Assembly (NCBI GenBank): GCA_937868205.1
Contig: CALMMC010000091.1
Span: 2,047 to 66,046 of the forward strand
DNA: 64,000 nt
DNA from: an uncultured bacterium
Lineage (GTDB): Bacteria; Acidobacteriota; Aminicenantia; Aminicenantales; UBA4085
Direction of reading: 5' to 3'
Of this stretch, positions 3,113 through 49,135 are shown in pieces. The notes beneath the pieces were generated by a model. The model was not told where the DNA came from and did no database searches. It worked only from the letters and a program-made list of their open reading frames with translations. Position 1 is the first letter of the stretch, and every line of letters starts with the position of its first letter. The translations under genes were made by a program, and so were the position numbers.

Positions 3113-5698
3113 ATGCCTCCCGAATACGCGCCCGAGACGATTCGCTTTTTAGAGGCGGCGTTCGCCGCCCAGGGCGTCCTCCGGCCGTTCCGGCGGCAGC
3201 GCTACGAGCCGGGAACGGTCCTGGAATACGAAATCCGCGGCGTTTGGCCGGACGCCCGGGCCCGCGTTTCTCTGGAAATCCTCAAGTTCGCCGGGGGCGG
3301 CTTCGCCGGCCAGGTCTACCAGGTCGCGGCGCGGTCGATCGTCCCGATCGAGGACCAAGTGGAAGGGCTGGAAGCCGGGCGGACCTACGCCCTGAAAATC
3401 CTGATTCCTCCGTCGCGCTTCGCCGCCCGCGTCCGGAACTTTTTCTACGGCTTCGGCTTTCAGGCCCCGTTTTCGCTCCAGTCGCTGGCCGCGGCCGGCC
3501 GCTCCCAAGCCCTCTGGCAGAAATTCATCCGCCGGGCCGCCCGGGTGGAGTTCGGCCGCGACGACGCTGTGGCCGACGTCATCGGCACCTTCCGCGACGA
3601 GAGGCTCGGCAGCTACGGCGAGCTCGGCGAATGGGTGGACGGCCGAATGTGGCGGTTTGAAATCGATGACGACCTCGATTCCCGGCACCGTTGGAAGCCC
3701 GGCGATCCGGAGGACGGGATCGGGTCCCCGGAATACCGGACGAAGCGTGAATTCATGAAACGGCTGACGGCGATGATGCGGCGGATGGGAGCGGAGGAGC
3801 TGGCCCGCCAGTACGAATGGGGATCGTTGAAAAGCCAGCCCAATGCCATGAAAAGGATCGCCTCCGATCCCGACCCGAGGGCCGGGCTGACCGCCGTCGA
3901 TTTCCGGGCGGGGATGGCCTTGACGCCCCTCAACCCGCAGTGCCCCGTCGATTTCAAGCTCATTCTCCGGGGGCTCGGGCGGGGCCGGCTCGTCCAATTC
4001 GACAAGGGCGATCTTCGGAAGCTCGAGCGTTTCGCCGGAGAACACGCCGGCGACTTCGCCGATCTTCGGCCGGCCCTGGAGGAACTGAAGCGGGAGGACG
4101 CGGCCTACCGCGATTCCCTTGTCGATTGGACGCATCATCATGTCCGGCTGTTTTCCGGCCGCCTCCGCCGGCGGATCATGGCCGGATTCCGCGAGAGCTG
4201 GCGGGTCCGGAACATCACCGACGACCGGACGGCCTCCGTCTTGGCGAAAAGCGGAGTCCTCTCCCTTCTTTTCCTCGGAGCGCCGGGACTGGCCCTGGCT
4301 TCGCCGCTCTTGTTTGTTTTCGCCTGGCCGGGGCGGATTTGGTGGAAGTATCCGCTCTGGCTTCTTCCGCTCATTCTGACTCCGCTCGTCCGAAAAATCT
4401 GGGGCCGGGACGATTTCCGCCGCCATTGCGGCCGGATGTTCGCGAGTCCCCTCTACATTCTCCGGGCGGGGCGGGCCCGGATCGCCGAGGCGATGATCCG
4501 CTGGGTCCGGACGGGCCGGGCCTCCGAGGAGCGCGCCCGGAACATCTCCTCCGCTCCCTGGCGGTATTACGCTCAGCTGCCGTTTTCCCTCTTGCCGCCC
4601 GGCTTCCACCGTTTTTTGACCGAGAAGGCTTACTTCAAGGAACGGATCCGGGCCCTTTTTATCCAGCCCGCGCGGCTTCTCGTCCGGCCGGCCGAGCGGG
4701 AGCGCTGGATGATCGGGATGATCGACCAGGGCGGGAAAAACGGCCTTCTGACGGCTCCCGAGGTTGAGCGCATCAAGGCCCAGGTTAAGGAGCCGTACAT
4801 CCAGAAATATCTCAAGAGCCTGGCCGTCCATGCCGCCACCCTGTTCGTCTCGGAAACCGTCTTTCTCGTAGCGGCAGTCGTCTACGTCCTGGCCCATCCG
4901 GAATTGACCTGGCAGGCGGCGACGCTCCGCGCCGGGCTCATCATCGGCGCCTTGAACCTCCTGCCGGTTTCGCCGGGATCCTTGGTCCGGGGATTCTACG
5001 TCGTCGGCCTGATGATCAAGGAGCGGAACTTCAAGGACTACAACATCGCCCTCGGGGTCAGTTTTCTCAAGGTTTTCGGCTACTTGGCGTTCCCGATCCA
5101 GATGACATACCGGTATCCCGACCTGGCCCGGTTCATGGCCGGCCATTGGGCCAACGAGGCCGTCCACCGGGTTCCGGTGTTCGGCGAGAAAGGCGCCTGG
5201 CTGGAGCATTTCGTTTTTGACGCGTTCTACAATTTCCCGCTGACCCTGCGCCGGAGGATCAGGACGCGGGCGGAAAGGCGGGCCGGGGAGCCGAAAAAAT
5301 CCTGGACGACGCCGCTCCTCGCCCTGGCTGCGGCCGTCGTTCTGGGCGGCCTGGGGGCCGGCTTCGCGGCCGTCGCCGGGGGGGCGCCGTCGTTCAACCG
5401 GACCTGGGGCTTGGCGGTCTGGGTGCCGGTGCTGGCCGGGGCGGCGATCGCCCGGGCGGCCTCCGGCTTTCAAATCGGGGCGCGCGTCCTTCGGGGAATG
5501 ACCGGCGGCGCGCTTCTCGGGGCGTTCGCCGGCCTCGCCTCCCATATCGCGGCCCTCGCCCCGTTTTTCGGCGCGGCCGCCGCCGCGGAAAACGTTCCCC
5601 CGGTCTTGGCCGCGGCCAAGTCGGGAGTCACGCTGATGCTGCTGTTCGGCGTCCTTGGTCTCGGAGGCGCGCTCTTCGCCGAAACGCGCCGGCCTTGA
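3113..5698 (+). CDS. protein-kinase-like (ABC1/atypical kinase-like) domain fused to large polytopic membrane domain
   Basis: 861-aa ORF starting 22 nt after the previous gene. It has a Gly-loop-like FAGGGFAGQVYQV followed by RTYALKIL (VAIK-like Lys), then GELGEWVDGRMW, LKSQPNAM and AVDFRAG. The C-terminal ~500 aa contain many hydrophobic segments, including NLLPVSPGSLVRGFY. Confidence 0.7.
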   Translation: MPPEYAPETIRFLEAAFAAQGVLRPFRRQRYEPGTVLEYEIRGVWPDARARVSLEILKFAGGGFAGQVYQVAARSIVPIEDQVEGLEAGRTYALKILIPPSRFAARVRNFFYGFGFQAPFSLQSLAAAGRSQALWQKFIRRAARVEFGRDDAVADVIGTFRDERLGSYGELGEWVDGRMWRFEIDDDLDSRHRWKPGDPEDGIGSPEYRTKREFMKRLTAMMRRMGAEELARQYEWGSLKSQPNAMKRIASDPDPRAGLTAVDFRAGMALTPLNPQCPVDFKLILRGLGRGRLVQFDKGDLRKLERFAGEHAGDFADLRPALEELKREDAAYRDSLVDWTHHHVRLFSGRLRRRIMAGFRESWRVRNITDDRTASVLAKSGVLSLLFLGAPGLALASPLLFVFAWPGRIWWKYPLWLLPLILTPLVRKIWGRDDFRRHCGRMFASPLYILRAGRARIAEAMIRWVRTGRASEERARNISSAPWRYYAQLPFSLLPPGFHRFLTEKAYFKERIRALFIQPARLLVRPAERERWMIGMIDQGGKNGLLTAPEVERIKAQVKEPYIQKYLKSLAVHAATLFVSETVFLVAAVVYVLAHPELTWQAATLRAGLIIGALNLLPVSPGSLVRGFYVVGLMIKERNFKDYNIALGVSFLKVFGYLAFPIQMTYRYPDLARFMAGHWANEAVHRVPVFGEKGAWLEHFVFDAFYNFPLTLRRRIRTRAERRAGEPKKSWTTPLLALAAAVVLGGLGAGFAAVAGGAPSFNRTWGLAVWVPVLAGAAIARAASGFQIGARVLRGMTGGALLGAFAGLASHIAALAPFFGAAAAAENVPPVLAAAKSGVTLMLLFGVLGLGGALFAETRRP

Positions 5699-14130: not shown

Positions 14131-14165
14131 CTGAACTATTGACACCTGCATAAGTAATGTCCTAT
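14131..14165. repeat. IS630-family left terminal inverted repeat
   Basis: ctgaactattgacacctgcataagtaatgtcctat. The reverse complement of 15214-15248 is ctgaactattgactcctgtatattaaatgtcctat. Confidence 0.8.
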
Positions 14166-14746
14166 TTTAAACGCAAAAAAAGGGGCGTGTGCTTCAGGAA
14201 TGAGCGGAGCAGAGATTGTTTCCTTTGAAGGGCTAGGCCGTGTCGCCGAACCGAGTTCGTCAAGAGCTCGTCTTCGAAGATCGCCTCGTTCGCCATCGAA
14301 TTGGTTTTCAGGTAACACCAGACGTTCTCGGTGGGATTCAACTCCGGCGCATAGGCCGGCAGAAACTCCAAGCGCCAGTCCTTTTTGAGAGCAATGTAGC
14401 GCTGAACACACCGAGCCCGATGCGGCATGAACCGATCCCAAAGCAGCGAAAGGGGACATTCAAAATGCCGGCTCAAATCCTTCAAGAACGAAAGGACCTT
14501 GCCGGCGTTGATGTTTTCCTGAGGATGAAGCCGGAAAAACAGCTGGACGCGGTCCCGGGCGGGAGAGACGGCCAGGGCCGCGATGACCGAAACCTTCCGA
14601 TAACTGTTTGTTCGATGTCGGAACAATGGCGGCTGACCGCGAGGCGCCCATGTCCTCCGCACCAAAGGCATCATCAGAAAGCCGCTCTCGTCGATGAAAA
14701 CGAGAGAAGCCCCTACGCGAGCGGAGTTTTTTTTACCCGAGGCCAA
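14162..14746 (-). CDS. IS630-family transposase, DDE catalytic part (orfB)
   Basis: Contains LVFIDESGF, LLWDRFMPHR and YAPELNPTENVW, i.e. a DD(34)E-type arrangement typical of IS630/Tc1-mariner transposases. Confidence 0.85.
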   Translation of the reverse strand: MASGKKNSARVGASLVFIDESGFLMMPLVRRTWAPRGQPPLFRHRTNSYRKVSVIAALAVSPARDRVQLFFRLHPQENINAGKVLSFLKDLSRHFECPLSLLWDRFMPHRARCVQRYIALKKDWRLEFLPAYAPELNPTENVWCYLKTNSMANEAIFEDELLTNSVRRHGLALQRKQSLLRSFLKHTPLFLRLK

Positions 14747-15222
14747 TCGATCTTGACCCAGGTCTGGATGGCTGCCTCATCCCGCTCAACGGCACGGCGT
14801 TGCGGCTTCTGGGGGCTCCAGCCCAGAGCGTGCAAAATTCGTCCGATATGGTCGACATGATAACGGACGCCGAAGGCTTTTTCGATGACCTGAACGACTC
14901 GGGGGCAGGTCCACAGGTCTGTCACAAAGCCCGATCGGCCGGCCCCTCGAAGCAGGATCGCCTCCAGCTTCCGCTTTTTCTGCCAATCGAGCCGCGGAGG
15001 GCGGCCGGGGAGTGGCTTGGAACGAATGGCTTCAGGCCCGTCCTTCAAGATACTCGCCTTCCAGCGTCGGACGCTACGGCGGTCGACACCGATTTTACGA
15101 GCAATCTCCACAGGCTGAAGCCCTTGTCCCAAATAATCCAAGGCCCGGTGTCGTCTCGCTTCCAGGAACTCTGCGCTTCCGGATGGTCTCATCGCTTCCC
15201 TCCAGATCAGAGTATAGGACAT
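14713..15222 (-). CDS. IS630-family transposase, N-terminal HTH part (orfA)
   Basis: Helix-turn-helix-like LQPVEIARKIGVDRRSVRRW and a second winged-helix region. It ends WPRVKKTPLA* just after the A8 run that overlaps orfB. Confidence 0.85.
   Translation of the reverse strand: MSYTLIWREAMRPSGSAEFLEARRHRALDYLGQGLQPVEIARKIGVDRRSVRRWKASILKDGPEAIRSKPLPGRPPRLDWQKKRKLEAILLRGAGRSGFVTDLWTCPRVVQVIEKAFGVRYHVDHIGRILHALGWSPQKPQRRAVERDEAAIQTWVKIDWPRVKKTPLA
14727..14734 (-). other. A8 slippery run, candidate -1 frameshift site joining orfA and orfB
   Basis: The minus strand reads GGGTAAAAAAAACTCC. Frame A gives V-K-K-T-P-L-A-stop. The -1 frame gives G-K-K-N-S-A-R-V-G-A-S-L-V-F-I-D-E. Confidence 0.5.
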
Positions 15223-15248
15223 TTAATATACAGGAGTCAATAGTTCAG
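15214..15248. repeat. IS630-family right terminal inverted repeat
   Basis: ataggacatttaatatacaggagtcaatagttcag, the inverted partner of 14131-14165. Confidence 0.8.
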
Positions 15249-15252
15249 TCCC

Positions 15253-42037: not shown

Positions 42038-44618
42038 CTTCGACCGCCTTTCCAGAAAGAGATGGGGAGCCCAGCAGGCCCGTCATGATATCCTGAACCT
42101 GGGCGACGGAAATGCCCTGGATGCAGCGCGCCTCGGAAAACAGGCAGTTTTGCGAGCAGGGATTGCACGTCAAACCCAGGTGGACGACCGCGTGGGCCGG
42201 CCCCCAAGGCCGGAAGCGGGCGTATTCACCCGGCCCGAACAGGCCGACGGAAACGACCCCCGCGGCGACCGCGATATGCATCGGGCCGGAGTCGTTGCCG
42301 ACGAAGTACCGGCAGGATCTCAGGACGGCGGCCATCTCCCGGATCGTCGTCTTCCCGGCCAGGTTCACCGTCCCCTCCGGCTTCAATCCGCGCTCGATCT
42401 CCGCGGCCAGCGCCGTTTCGGATTTCGCGGCCAGGATCAGGATCCGGGCGCCATGGACGTCCTGGAGCCACCGCCCGAGGGCGACGAACCGCTCCGCCGG
42501 CCAGCGGCGGAATTCCCAGCGCGCGCCGGGAGCGAAGGCGATCACGAGCTCCCCGGAGCCGATCCGATGCCCATCCAGGAGGTTCCGGGCTTTTTGTTCA
42601 TCGTCGGCGGTCGTCCAAACCTTCAAGGACGCGTCCTCGGACCGTCCTCCGAGATGACGGAGGAGATCCGCCTGGTACTCGACCTCATGCTTCTCGGCGC
42701 CCCGCGCCGGGCCGTCGGTGATCAGGCCGTTGAGGCCGTTTCTTCCCGGTTTGGCCGGGGCGTTCGGCGGATTGAGGTAAGCCACCCGCCTCGGGGCGCC
42801 GCTGGCGGCCATCAGGATCAGGGAAGCCGCCTGGGGGGCGTCGTTGTTCCAGCGCAGGGAAACCGCCAAGTCGAAGCGGCGCTTCCGGAACGTCCGGACG
42901 GCCAGGGTCAATCCTTTCAACCACCACCGGACGCTTCCGTAAAAGGCGTCGTTCCAACGAGCGAAGCTCCGGTAGGGAAAAGTCAGGATCTCGTCGACCT
43001 CGGGACATTTTTCGATGATATTCAGGCCGCCGGGATGGACGGCCAGGACGATCTTCGACCGGGGCAGGAGCGTCCGCAGGTTCCGCAGAAACGGCCCGGA
43101 CAAGACGATATCGCCGAGGTCGGCCAATTGGACGACGAGCACTTCCCGCGGCTCGCCGCCGGCCGGCCGGGAGCGCCTCCGGCCGAGCCAGCGATGGATT
43201 CCCTTCAGGACCGGAGGAAACGCGAGGAGAGACAGCCGGCAGGCGGCGATCCGCGCCCCGCCTTTCAGCTTGGCGGCCACCGCCTTCGGCCGAAACAGGC
43301 GCCGGATCCGAATGAGTACGCCGCTCCAACGGAGCCAGCGCTCGGGGCGGCCGGACGCGGACACGGCCTCGCCGCCGGCCGCGTCCTCCTCGTCCCGGGA
43401 TACGGCCGAAAACGGCCGGGGATCCGCGGCGATCTCCTCCAGGATCTTTTCGACCGCTTCCACGGTCCGGTCGAGCCTGAACCGCTCCTCGATCGTTTTC
43501 CGGGCGTTCCGCCGCAGCATTTCCCGGAGGGCCGGATCGTCCAGCAGCCGCCGGACGGCCCGGGCGCAGGCTTCCGGATTTTCCGGAGGAACGACCAGGG
43601 CGTTGCGGCCGTCCTCAAGGACCTCGGAATTCCCGCCCCGGGCGGCGGCCACGACCGGAAGGCCGCAAGCCATCGCTTCCAGCAGGGCCGGGGTGATGGA
43701 TCCCACTCGGGCCGCGGGATGGAGGAACAGGTCGTGGCCGAGAAGCATGTCCGGCGACGACATGTCCGGGGCATACTCGACAAAGGAAACATCGCCGGCC
43801 GCGCCGGCTTGTTCCGCCCGGTCCTGCAGGGACACGAGGATCTCGGGGAAGCCGGAAAGCGGCCCGGCGACCGTCAGCGTCAAACCGGCCCCGTCCGGAT
43901 CTCTCTTCAGCAAGCCCAGGGTCCGGACGGCGACGTCGGCGCCGTCCTCGGGCGTCACCGGCCCGAGAAAAAGCATGCGGGCCGGCCGCGCCCCGGTCGT
44001 TTCCTTATAGGCGAAACGGCGGAGATCGACGCCCGGCGGGACGACGACCGCCCGGCGGACCGGCTTGCCGACGCGTTCCGTCGCCTCCAGGACATACCGG
44101 CTGGTGAAGACGGCCGGAAGCTCGTGGAGAGGACGGGGGAAAGCGGAAAGGCCGAAGCGGCGGGTGAGAAAGCGGATCGCCCTCCGCCCGCGCGTTCCGC
44201 GGGGCTGCTCACGGTACCAGAGGTCCCGTTCCCAAACGGCCAGGCCGTCGCCGTCGACATAGAGGCAGGAGGCGACTCCTAAGCTTTCAGCCAGAAGCGG
44301 CAGCGAAGCCGAAATCCGGGGCAAACCGAAGAAGAGCGCCGCCGCGGGCCGGAATCCGAGGATGGATTCCCGAAGGGCGGCCTGGTTGGCCAGCTCCTTC
44401 CGGAAAACGTCAGACCAGGCGTTCCGGTCGGCCCGGTCGCGGACAAGCCGGCGAAGGACGGGCTCCGTCCCAAGGGACGCGCCCGGAAACGTCCCGCCGG
44501 CCAGCACGCGGACTTCGTGTCCCCTCCGGGTCAGACCCTCGACGAGGCCGCGGCAGGCGAGATCCGCGGAAGTCCGGTCCGCGGGAGGATAGCCGCCGGT
44601 CACGACGAGGATGCGCAT
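42024..44618 (-). CDS. bifunctional glycosyltransferase: N-terminal GT4 plus C-terminal GT9 (heptosyltransferase-like)
   Basis: N-terminus MRILVVTGGYPP...GHEVRVL and ...GLPVVAAARGGNSEVLEDGRNALVV (GT4). From ~aa 520, VLVVQLADLGDIVLSGPFLRNLR...GNDSGPMHIAVAAGV (GT9). Confidence 0.8.
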   Translation of the reverse strand: MRILVVTGGYPPADRTSADLACRGLVEGLTRRGHEVRVLAGGTFPGASLGTEPVLRRLVRDRADRNAWSDVFRKELANQAALRESILGFRPAAALFFGLPRISASLPLLAESLGVASCLYVDGDGLAVWERDLWYREQPRGTRGRRAIRFLTRRFGLSAFPRPLHELPAVFTSRYVLEATERVGKPVRRAVVVPPGVDLRRFAYKETTGARPARMLFLGPVTPEDGADVAVRTLGLLKRDPDGAGLTLTVAGPLSGFPEILVSLQDRAEQAGAAGDVSFVEYAPDMSSPDMLLGHDLFLHPAARVGSITPALLEAMACGLPVVAAARGGNSEVLEDGRNALVVPPENPEACARAVRRLLDDPALREMLRRNARKTIEERFRLDRTVEAVEKILEEIAADPRPFSAVSRDEEDAAGGEAVSASGRPERWLRWSGVLIRIRRLFRPKAVAAKLKGGARIAACRLSLLAFPPVLKGIHRWLGRRRSRPAGGEPREVLVVQLADLGDIVLSGPFLRNLRTLLPRSKIVLAVHPGGLNIIEKCPEVDEILTFPYRSFARWNDAFYGSVRWWLKGLTLAVRTFRKRRFDLAVSLRWNNDAPQAASLILMAASGAPRRVAYLNPPNAPAKPGRNGLNGLITDGPARGAEKHEVEYQADLLRHLGGRSEDASLKVWTTADDEQKARNLLDGHRIGSGELVIAFAPGARWEFRRWPAERFVALGRWLQDVHGARILILAAKSETALAAEIERGLKPEGTVNLAGKTTIREMAAVLRSCRYFVGNDSGPMHIAVAAGVVSVGLFGPGEYARFRPWGPAHAVVHLGLTCNPCSQNCLFSEARCIQGISVAQVQDIMTGLLGSPSLSGKAVEDEQA

Positions 44619-44699
44619 GCGTCTTCTCTCTTTATCCCGGATTATTCATAAATATTTTAAAATTCTCATATATCATTTTTTATGAATAAGATAGAAATA

Positions 44700-44925
44700 T
44701 GAGGATTGACCCTTCGGACGATGCTCAGCTCACCCTGCGAGCCGAAGCAAGTCCCGCACGAACCTTGTGAGTCGGGGCGAGCCGAAAGGACCGCATCTGC
44801 TTCGTTGCGAAGGATTCGCCGTGCGGCCAGCACGGGCTTTGCCGTCCTCATCCTCGTGGTATCAAGGATGAGGGCAGCGTCACCCTTCACGCCTCGCATC
44901 TGCGACTCTCTCGACTCGTGCATAA
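44700..44925. ncRNA. candidate structured RNA (long 5' leader of the glycan operon or independent sRNA); family unknown
   Basis: Nested complementarity is detailed in findings. The element is flanked by AT-rich islands, and overlapping ORFs are not protein-like. The strand is undetermined. A minus-strand promoter at 44951-44980 would transcribe through it. Confidence 0.3.
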
Positions 44926-44950
44926 TCCAGGTTATCTCTTTTTTTTCAAA

Positions 44951-44980
44951 TATATATCATCATTGGATAAATTTTGGCAA
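44951..44980 (-). promoter_or_regulatory. sigma70-like promoter directed toward 44618
   Basis: Minus strand reads TTGCCA (44975-80), 17-18 nt, TATATA/ATATAT (44951-57). Confidence 0.35.
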
Positions 44981-45027
44981 ACCGGGCGCGGGCGGGGGTT
45001 CCCGGGGGGGAACGCGGGACCTGGAAA

Positions 45028-49135
<4,108 letters not shown>

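Follow-up and report, generated by a model that had tools for sequence, protein, structure and literature searches.

A structured spacer between atpC and a glycan operon as a probable miniature inverted-repeat transposable element of Aminicenantes

INTRODUCTION

What is the structured DNA that lies between atpC and a glycan/ATP-binding cassette (ABC) exporter operon in an uncultured bacterium of the Acidobacteriota? In the stretch analyzed here, 64,000 nucleotides of contig CALMMC010000091.1 (hereafter the window), a spacer of 409 bp separates the atpC stop codon from the start codon of the operon's first gene, which encodes a GT4-GT9 fusion glycosyltransferase. Its GC content is 0.13-0.35 at 44610-44729 and 0.32-0.42 at 44910-44999, with a core of 0.58-0.65 between them (0.63 for the whole window), and this profile bears out the initial annotation of this DNA, which describes a GC-rich core between two AT-rich islands. 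AtpD, the ATP synthase beta subunit encoded just upstream of atpC, places the window in the Acidobacteriota, nearest to Candidatus Aminicenantes (80-81% identity).

The initial annotation took the region to be a novel structured leader or noncoding RNA of this particular locus. That interpretation is not supported, as a strain that is about 98% identical lacks the sequence and dozens of unrelated contexts elsewhere carry it. Our analysis indicates that the core and the left AT-rich island are very probably one noncoding, nonautonomous miniature inverted-repeat transposable element (MITE) that inserted between the promoter and the first gene of the operon. A mobile-element relic had been listed as an alternative and proves essentially right; the element is mobile, but it is intact and no relic, since its inverted repeats are well preserved and its target duplication has no mismatch.

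RESULTS

The spacer holds an insertion that a near-identical strain lacks

One contig, L081, carries the same locus in its empty state. It matches the window at 97.8% DNA identity over 3,022 nt downstream and at 98.3% over 59 nt upstream, its glycosyltransferase is 98% identical in protein sequence to that of the window, and its promoter leads directly into the start codon with no insert between the two. Around the insertion point L081 reads ...GGTTTGCCAAGATTTATCCAATGATGATATATATTTGAAAAAAAAGAGATAA/AGACAGAAGACGCATG (in a shorter quotation, ...TTTGAAAAAAAAGAGATAA/AGACAGAAGACGCATG; the slash marks the insertion point), and the minus strand of the window has the same flanks plus 296 bases and a second ATAA exactly at this point. 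Read 5' to 3' on the minus strand, the inserted element starts with CCTGGATTATGCACGAG and ends with TTTATGAATAATCCGGG. The filled allele is also present in five further contigs, apparently from other samples, at 99.4-99.6% identity, and in one more that is identical over the 415 nt compared. Because near-identical contigs carry both filled and empty alleles, the insertion is polymorphic within effectively one species.

Homologues of the glycosyltransferase form a graded identity series, along which the spacers of L081 to L084 were compared. The element is missing from L082 (70% protein identity), where the spacer between atpC and the gene is 8 bp, from L083 (67%), where it is 72 bp, and from L084 (66%), where a divergent PadR gene lies 127 bp upstream. 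The exact protein sequence of the window's glycosyltransferase was not on record. Among the 80 atpD-anchored Acidobacteriota loci listed, no sequence downstream of atpC is homologous to the core, and in the closest relatives among them the next gene follows atpC at a distance of 40 to 60 bp.

These comparisons bear directly on the possibility that the sequence is a dedicated cis-regulatory leader, such as a riboswitch or attenuator, of the glycan/ABC-exporter operon. In favor of a leader, the sequence has a high degree of structure and stands, sense oriented, after a conserved promoter and ahead of the first gene; yet it is missing from the approximately 98% identical L081 and from the orthologous loci of L082, L083, and L084, the same sequence stands beside unrelated genes elsewhere, inverted repeats and a duplication flank it, and it has no Rfam match. 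The existence of an empty site refutes a dedicated leader, which we regard as extremely improbable.

The boundaries of the insertion also explain the composition of the spacer, as the left AT-rich island is the tail of the element and the right one is mostly native, conserved promoter DNA of the operon, outside the element. An 11-bp inverted repeat in the left island lies partly in the AT-rich tail, and its first arm overlaps the 3' terminal repeat. Its arms are at 44642-52 and 44679-89; the second arm had originally been placed at 44689-99, and all other complementary segments reported for the region are where they were said to be.

The insertion belongs to a dispersed repeat family

A search with the translation of a spurious 85-amino-acid open reading frame (ORF) within the element returned called "proteins" on other contigs, including L091 and L094. 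The L091 copy (5001-5263) lies between a fucosidase gene and a gene for a CYTH-domain protein, exactly at their overlapping stop/start ATGA, and this tetranucleotide is duplicated. Through the duplication, the TGA stop and the ATG start are each formed anew, and two genes that were formerly translationally coupled are now 255 bp of structured repeat apart. A 20-mer common to the copies in the window, L091, and L094, TCGCAACGAAGCAGATGCGG, was found in 61 metagenome stretches in a collection scan, and these stretches together with the earlier contigs yielded 37 distinct complete copies of 191 to 601 bp that all share their ends. Two or three copies are present on several of the contigs, with up to 3 copies in 11 kb.

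A perfect 4-bp duplication flanks 17 of the 37 copies, and the two flanks differ by one base in 12 more. The perfect duplications are TTAA (seven copies), ATAA (three), ATGA (two, on two contigs at the same locus), and CTAA, CTAG, TTAT, TATC, and TTGG (one each). The outer bases of these tetranucleotides match between left and right (ATAA, CTAG, TTAT, TATC, ATGA, TTGG), and the duplication is therefore 4 bp and not TA. A MITE of the IS630/Tc1-mariner type, with a TA duplication, was considered and is ruled out by these covarying flanking bases. The targets are AT-rich tetranucleotides, most commonly TTAA. All copies are intergenic, with none inside a long ORF; stop codons directly adjoin many of them, as is expected from a TTAA/CTAG-type target in GC-rich genomes. 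Relative to neighboring genes the copies show no orientation bias (divergent, 7; codirectional, 5; convergent, 5; antisense, 3). The loci that carry them range from 43 to 65% GC, and the hairpin is GC rich throughout.

Three miniature derivatives of 64 to 95 bp (L125 12941-13025, L134 3834-3897, and L152 7846-7940) keep both terminal repeats and perfect or near-perfect 4-bp duplications without the hairpin. L125 holds in addition a much-diverged copy (3387-3501) whose loop strands are unlike the consensus. The element matched nothing in a plasmid collection, and viral contigs gave one match to the 20-mer, probably by chance, and none to the two-strand motif. Copies stand at contig ends at many metagenome loci (e.g., L095, L109, L130, L135, L137, L138, L147, and L152), an indication that members of the repeat family cause breaks when these genomes are assembled from short reads.

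The dispersed copies also settle whether the 85-amino-acid ORF (44666-44923, minus strand) encodes a small protein. It is an open frame with an ATG start and database relatives, and in L091 it fits tightly between its two neighboring genes, but the 61% protein identity between the window and L091 equals 0.85 cubed, that is, unconstrained DNA at 85% identity, and substitutions fall on all three codon positions (e.g., 14/19/19 and 9/10/11). Codon position 2 is affected equally. In many copies the ATG has become ATT, or the frame is interrupted by stops or shifted by modules; the ORF has no Pfam match, and its GC content at third codon positions is 0.71, compared with 0.82 to 0.88 in neighboring genes. 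We give a small protein next to no probability, and the unconstrained substitutions, the broken frames, the third-position GC content, and the lack of a Pfam match rule out the ORF as a gene. The initial annotation had already judged this ORF and a second one of 122 amino acids to be unlike proteins, and neither matches Pfam. In annotation, the element should be masked as a repeat and the 85-amino-acid ORF should not be called.

In the literature, a full-text search turned up no account of MITEs from Aminicenantes, and no paper that treats covarying RNA structure in MITEs of bacteria was found. The element represents an abundant and modular family of Aminicenantes repeats, undescribed until now and new as a family, though its kind is known.

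Copies are built from a base form and optional modules

The base form of the family measures about 196 bp. Its 5' inverted repeat is followed by a long irregular hairpin (about 100 nt), then by the block CCCGAAGGGTAAA and a tail of AT-rich sequence (about 55 nt), and the 3' inverted repeat closes it. Four optional modules are added to this form at fixed insertion points: module A (about 114 nt) after GGCNGCAG, module B (about 38 nt) after GAGGCGCG, module C (about 42 nt) after GAAGCTG, and module D (about 59 nt) after the 3' strand of helix P1 of the hairpin. The window copy is the base form with modules C and D, the boundaries of D being ambiguous by a 6-nt repeat (TCGCCC/TCGTCC). Modules sit only at loops and junctions, and some are duplicated or nested; module A, for example, is tandemly duplicated in L111.

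The smaller modules end in GGAC[T/G]GCAAAGCC[C/T]G, a motif confined to copies of the element. Units of about 38 nt, CCCT...AGGAC[T/G]GCAAAGCC[C/T]G, are nested in other modules, with up to three per copy (e.g., L103 4287-4774, L111 2189-2789, L120 1577-2003, and L123 1495-1918). The 38-nt GGACNGCAAAGCC unit might have been a REP-like repeat independent of the element; its occurrence within element copies only rules this out.

A hairpin domain is conserved through compensatory changes

The strong structure originally claimed for the region is confirmed, since the minus strand of the gap folds better than dinucleotide shuffles (z score, -4.10; 0 of 100 shuffles as good), with weaker folding of the plus strand (z score, -1.88); the 296-bp element by itself reaches -5.94 on the minus strand and -4.26 on the plus strand. 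The fold is not the one first proposed, however. Three long-range helices, GCACGA/TCGTGC, GAGTCG/CGACTC, and GCGAG/CTCGC, had been thought to close the core, and they are missing from both the minimum-free-energy and the centroid folds. Their 3' partners sit in optional module D, which is missing from many copies, so that these helices are impossible there. The 5' partner, CGAGUCGAG, pairs instead with UCGGCUCG to form P1, a pairing backed by covariation. A proposed hairpin CTTCG-TTG-CGAAG is likewise an alternative pairing and is broken in L096 and L132, where the competing helix P4 is kept through compensatory changes. A second local hairpin, CCTCATCCT/AGGATGAGG (44846-54/44865-73), is real and turned out to be a recurrent module of the family, module C, where 13 copies retain it and one compensatory change is seen.

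We aligned 22 core sequences without modules A to C, including several divergent copies and a second subfamily with the ends ACCTTAATTTTGCA.../...TGCAAAATTAAGGT and a wholly different P1. RNAalifold returned a hairpin of 32 pairs, of which 16 show a compensatory change. Standard pairs fill 97.2% of the cells, against 86.7% in column shuffles (0 of 500 reach the observed value) and 27 to 44% with slid partners. The internal loops comprise a symmetric GCAGAUGC/GCAGAUGC helix with tandem G-A pairs, followed by GA-G-GC opposite AA-C-GAA. The two conserved loop strands, AGAUGCGAGGC and AACGAAGCAGAU, are kept across subfamilies that differ in the sequences of their inverted repeats, P1, and P4. Mean pairwise identity among 12 base-form copies at different loci is 0.90 in the hairpin, 0.89 in each terminal repeat, 0.96 in CCCGAAGGGTAAA, and 0.60 in the AT-rich tail. 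A covariance model built from 22 other copies recovers the window copy at 89.3 bits (E = 3e-22) as its sole match in the window and finds further copies that lack the exact 20-mer; on the 80 atpD-anchored loci listed it gives one marginal match only (20.7 bits; E = 0.02). The covariation shows that the fold is of importance to those lineages which propagate.

The structure appears to be strand specific. G-U pairs are frequent on one strand only, consistent with such specificity, and the forward strand, which is the minus strand of the window, folds better in 30 of the 37 copies, by a mean of 9.5 kcal/mol and by 13 to 23 kcal/mol in most base forms. Elements of the IS200/IS605 and REP/RAYT types have strand-specific imperfect hairpins with conserved unpaired bases, and the strand-biased imperfect hairpin described here could accordingly be read as the recognition structure of an HUH-type transposase acting on single-stranded DNA, the element being a derivative of one of these groups. 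Such elements insert beside a fixed short motif and lack target duplications and terminal inverted repeats, though. Duplications and repeats are both clear here, ATAA being duplicated relative to the empty site; the 38-nt GGACNGCAAAGCC units, moreover, were not found outside element copies. We consider an HUH-type origin very improbable and return to a MITE with classical ends.

The sequence had at first not been recognized as RNase P RNA, tmRNA, SRP RNA, 6S RNA, or a common riboswitch, and no described RNA family was found to match it. At gathering thresholds Rfam 15 has no match along the whole window, a search of the region with E values up to 10 gave only weak, chance snoRNA-like matches in the AT-rich promoter, and seven other copy-bearing loci gave no consistent match.

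Is the hairpin a functional RNA in its own right? Under this explanation, which overlaps with our best one, the element is mobile and the hairpin is itself a small regulatory RNA, a protein-binding RNA, or a ribozyme, spread by the MITE and sometimes retained by the host. In its favor are the strong covariation with abundant G-U pairs on one strand only, the retention of both loop strands despite differing inverted repeats, P1, P4, and host GC content (43-65%), and the confinement of module insertions to loops and junctions. Further support comes from the radC-recA spacer, in which old antisense copies of the element (L144 5840-6020, L148 105-285, and L161 2241-2351) adjoin a conserved recA promoter-like site, TTGAAA-N17-TAAACT. 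In two related Aminicenantes with contigs 88% identical, the terminal repeats there have decayed and the hairpin has been retained; it is 98% identical (2 differences in 116 nt), compared with 75 to 82% in the flanks and 80 to 95% in radC, and taken alone this pair is suggestive of purifying selection at a fixed locus.

Other observations do not fit a functional RNA. A lineage with 91% RadC identity holds only a decayed remnant at radC-recA (23 bits; 77% GC), and a closer one, with 96% RadC identity, has no hairpin at that place. The structured strand is antisense to both neighbors at radC-recA and in L098, and across copies it has no orientation bias relative to neighboring genes. Within the element there is no evident promoter upstream of the hairpin, the AT-rich, promoter-like part lying downstream, while the 64- to 95-bp derivatives keep their duplications without any hairpin, and no Rfam family matches. 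On balance we find a functional RNA possible but rather unlikely.

The features of the locus are collected in Table 1.

Table 1. Coordinates of the inserted element, its conserved hairpin, and adjoining features in the window
Feature	Position	Strand	Basis or remark
Whole inserted element, 296 bp	44636..44931	-	Empty in L081; inverted repeats; 4-bp duplication; homologous copies elsewhere
Target-site duplication, promoter side, TTAT (plus)/ATAA (minus)	44932..44935		L081 GAGATAA/AGACAG; window GAGATAA-element-ATAAAGAGAG
Target-site duplication, gene side, TTAT (plus)/ATAA (minus)	44632..44635		L081 empty site holds ATAA once
5' terminal inverted repeat, 13 bp, CCTGGATTATGCA	44919..44931	-	Identical to family consensus
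3' terminal inverted repeat, 13 bp, TGAATAATCCGGG	44636..44648	-	Family consensus ...CCAGG
AT-rich tail of element (left AT-rich island)	44649..44705	-	Composition conserved among copies
Conserved hairpin domain, four helices and two conserved loop strands	44769..44925	-	Covariance model match, fold, covariation
P1	~44908-44918 with 44778-44788	-	Fold and covariation
P2	~44902-44906 with 44790-44794	-	Fold and covariation
P3	44896-44898 with 44798-44800	-	Fold and covariation
P4	44882-44890 with 44807-44815	-	Fold and covariation
Conserved loop strands AGAUGCGAGGC and AACGAAGCAGAU	Within hairpin domain	-	Almost invariant among copies
Optional module C, ~42 nt, hairpin CCTCATCCT/AGGATGAGG and tail GGACGGCAAAGCCCG	44833..44874	-	Near tip of core hairpin; missing in 196-bp base form
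Optional module D, ~59 nt	~44716..44780	-	Just 3' of P1; missing in base-form copies
Promoter-like site: -35 TTGCCA (44980-44975), 18-nt spacer, extended -10 TGATATATA (44959-44951)	44951..44980	-	Conserved in relatives
Start codon, 864-amino-acid GT4-GT9 fusion glycosyltransferase	44616..44618	-	17 nt downstream of element
atpC stop codon	45028..45030	-	atpC product, 97 amino acids; beta-sandwich domain only

Promoter, operon, and neighboring genes

A minus-strand promoter transcribing through the region into the operon had been predicted, and the site, TTGCCA-N18-TGATATATA, is indeed present. It is conserved directly upstream of the orthologous gene in L081 and also in L084, where the upstream gene is a different one, and a similar -10 is present in L083. 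The element begins about 13 nt or more downstream of the predicted -10 and would have landed, in the sense orientation, in a short 5' untranslated region of the operon. Its start at 44931 would fall within the first ~15 nt of the predicted transcript, so that the mRNA would open with the element's hairpin, and the native promoter would now give a leader of about 330 nt bearing this long hairpin. Neither the ribosome-binding region nor the start codon is altered. A pattern scan found no intrinsic terminator on the operon-sense strand and one weak outward promoter-like match, ATGAGA-N17-AATAAT, with its -10 in the 3' repeat. The filled allele makes up the majority of sampled contigs, and on that ground the effect of the insertion on operon expression is probably mild and not strongly harmful.

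Upstream of the glycosyltransferase gene a block TTTGCCA..ATTT.TCCAATGATGATATAT.TTTGA.AAAA is conserved even where the upstream neighbor differs (window 44936-44985, L081 1-59, L084 2933-2989, and L083 about 150-190). Its conservation exceeds what a bare -35 and -10 need, and an operator may overlap the promoter.

The neighboring ATP synthase epsilon subunit is short, with 91 to 97 amino acids (window 45031-45321, minus strand; L082 1059-1334; L086 340-633). Only the N-terminal beta-sandwich domain (PF02823) was detected, and there is no space for the usual C-terminal helical regulatory domain.

DISCUSSION

Our findings indicate that the gap between atpC and the glycan operon consists of a conserved promoter and a recently inserted MITE, not of a regulatory RNA that evolved for the operon. 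The inverted repeats, the target duplication, the presence/absence polymorphism, and the dispersed homologous copies in intergenic DNA are all directly demonstrated. For movement, a DDE-type transposase recognizing CCTGGATTAT[G/T]CA ends would act on the element in trans and make 4-bp staggered cuts.

Several points weigh against this account. Mobilization by a DDE enzyme is something we infer from the repeats and the duplication only, and no such enzyme was found in the copy-bearing loci: in about 0.5 Mb of these, no pair of inverted repeats 0.65 to 4 kb apart encloses a transposase, and tblastn with the ISEcp1 transposase found no IS1380-like transposase in any copy-bearing locus retrieved. 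Poor duplications, with at least two mismatches, flank 8 of the 37 copies, which fits age or boundary error, and the window holds a single copy only. In addition, ascertainment accounts in part for how invariant the 3' loop strand is, as copies were found through the 20-mer. A plain MITE needs no internal hairpin with near-invariant loops, covariation, and G-U strand bias, and something beyond two transposon ends is conserved. A candidate for the autonomous parent, L122, in which the 5' end is followed by nonelement sequence, is a truncated copy beside an outer-membrane-like gene and not a parent.

Our best guess is that the hairpin serves the element itself. It could have been inherited from the 5' end of a parent insertion sequence (IS), either as the leader of a transposase mRNA or as a recognition structure needed for propagation. 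We propose only tentatively, and as the less likely possibility, that the hairpin domain is a new structured nucleic acid motif with a function of its own, acting as RNA or as strand-specific single-stranded DNA. Its candidate roles may include a recognition structure essential for propagation of this transposon, a mobile small or protein-binding RNA open to domestication by hosts, or a ribozyme of a kind not yet described. The hairpin could thus point either to an unrecognized requirement of a transposition system or to a mobile RNA motif.

These findings matter beyond the locus itself. Aminicenantes are an uncultured lineage of a little-studied phylum, and this is a new MITE family there. 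Strains of the same species differ by a structured 296-nt insert in the 5' untranslated region of a cell envelope glycan/exporter operon, and they provide a natural experiment on its expression.

Among known systems, the IS1380 family offers a lead, not a result, as to parentage. The ends of ISEcp1 on plasmid pC15-1a are CCTAGATTCTACGT (left inverted repeat) and CCTAAATTCCACGT (right inverted repeat, reverse complement), and the element end CCTGGATTATGCAC is identical to the left one at 9 of 14 positions, including CCT-GATT. The target duplication of the IS1380 family is 4 to 5 bp. The match is weak, given that the window's unrelated IS630-like element scores 10 of 16 by eye, and no IS1380-like transposase was found in the copy-bearing loci retrieved.

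The IS630-like insertion sequence just mentioned (window 14131-15250, minus strand; about 1.1 kb) contains an HTH_33 ORF of 169 amino acids and a DDE_3 ORF of 194 amino acids that overlap at a run of A's, which suggests programmed frameshifting. Its inverted repeats, CTGAACTATTGAC[A/T]CCTG..., possibly with TCC at both flanks, are unrelated to the ends of the MITE.

Closer in kind are the bacterial MITEs Correia/NEMIS of Neisseria, ERIC/IRU of enterobacteria, and RUP of Streptococcus pneumoniae. They are noncoding elements of about 100 to 300 bp that have terminal inverted repeats, duplicate a short target that is AT rich or contains TA, occur in many intergenic copies often cotranscribed with their neighbors, form stable RNA hairpins, and are polymorphic among strains. 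The element described here resembles them in size, in being noncoding, in its inverted repeats and duplications, and in its intergenic copies, folding, and strain polymorphism. It shares no sequence similarity with them, and its hosts belong to another phylum, the Acidobacteriota (Aminicenantes). Their hairpin is mainly an end-to-end pairing, whereas the hairpin here is internal and asymmetric, adjoining one end and followed by an AT-rich tail, and it has covarying stems, near-invariant internal loops, and a strand bias in G-U pairs.

The modules recall the BOX elements of S. pneumoniae, which are modular boxA-boxB(n)-boxC repeats in tandem with predicted stable structures. Both have optional or repeated internal modules that produce discrete size classes, as well as predicted stable structures. 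The BOX modules are arranged in tandem, in contrast to the hairpin modules of about 38 to 114 nt described here, which are nested at four fixed points and sometimes within one another.

Finally, structured RNAs accompany specific recombinases or nucleases in the IS110 bridge RNA, the IS200/605 omega RNA, and HEARO. Plant retrozymes are mobile elements with hammerheads (PMC4918200). All of these share with our family a conserved, covarying, structured domain that travels with a mobile element. They differ from it in having specific proteins or known ribozyme cores, whereas the element of Aminicenantes carries its hairpin without a linked protein gene, an Rfam match, or a recognizable ribozyme core, within a classical architecture of terminal repeats and target duplication.

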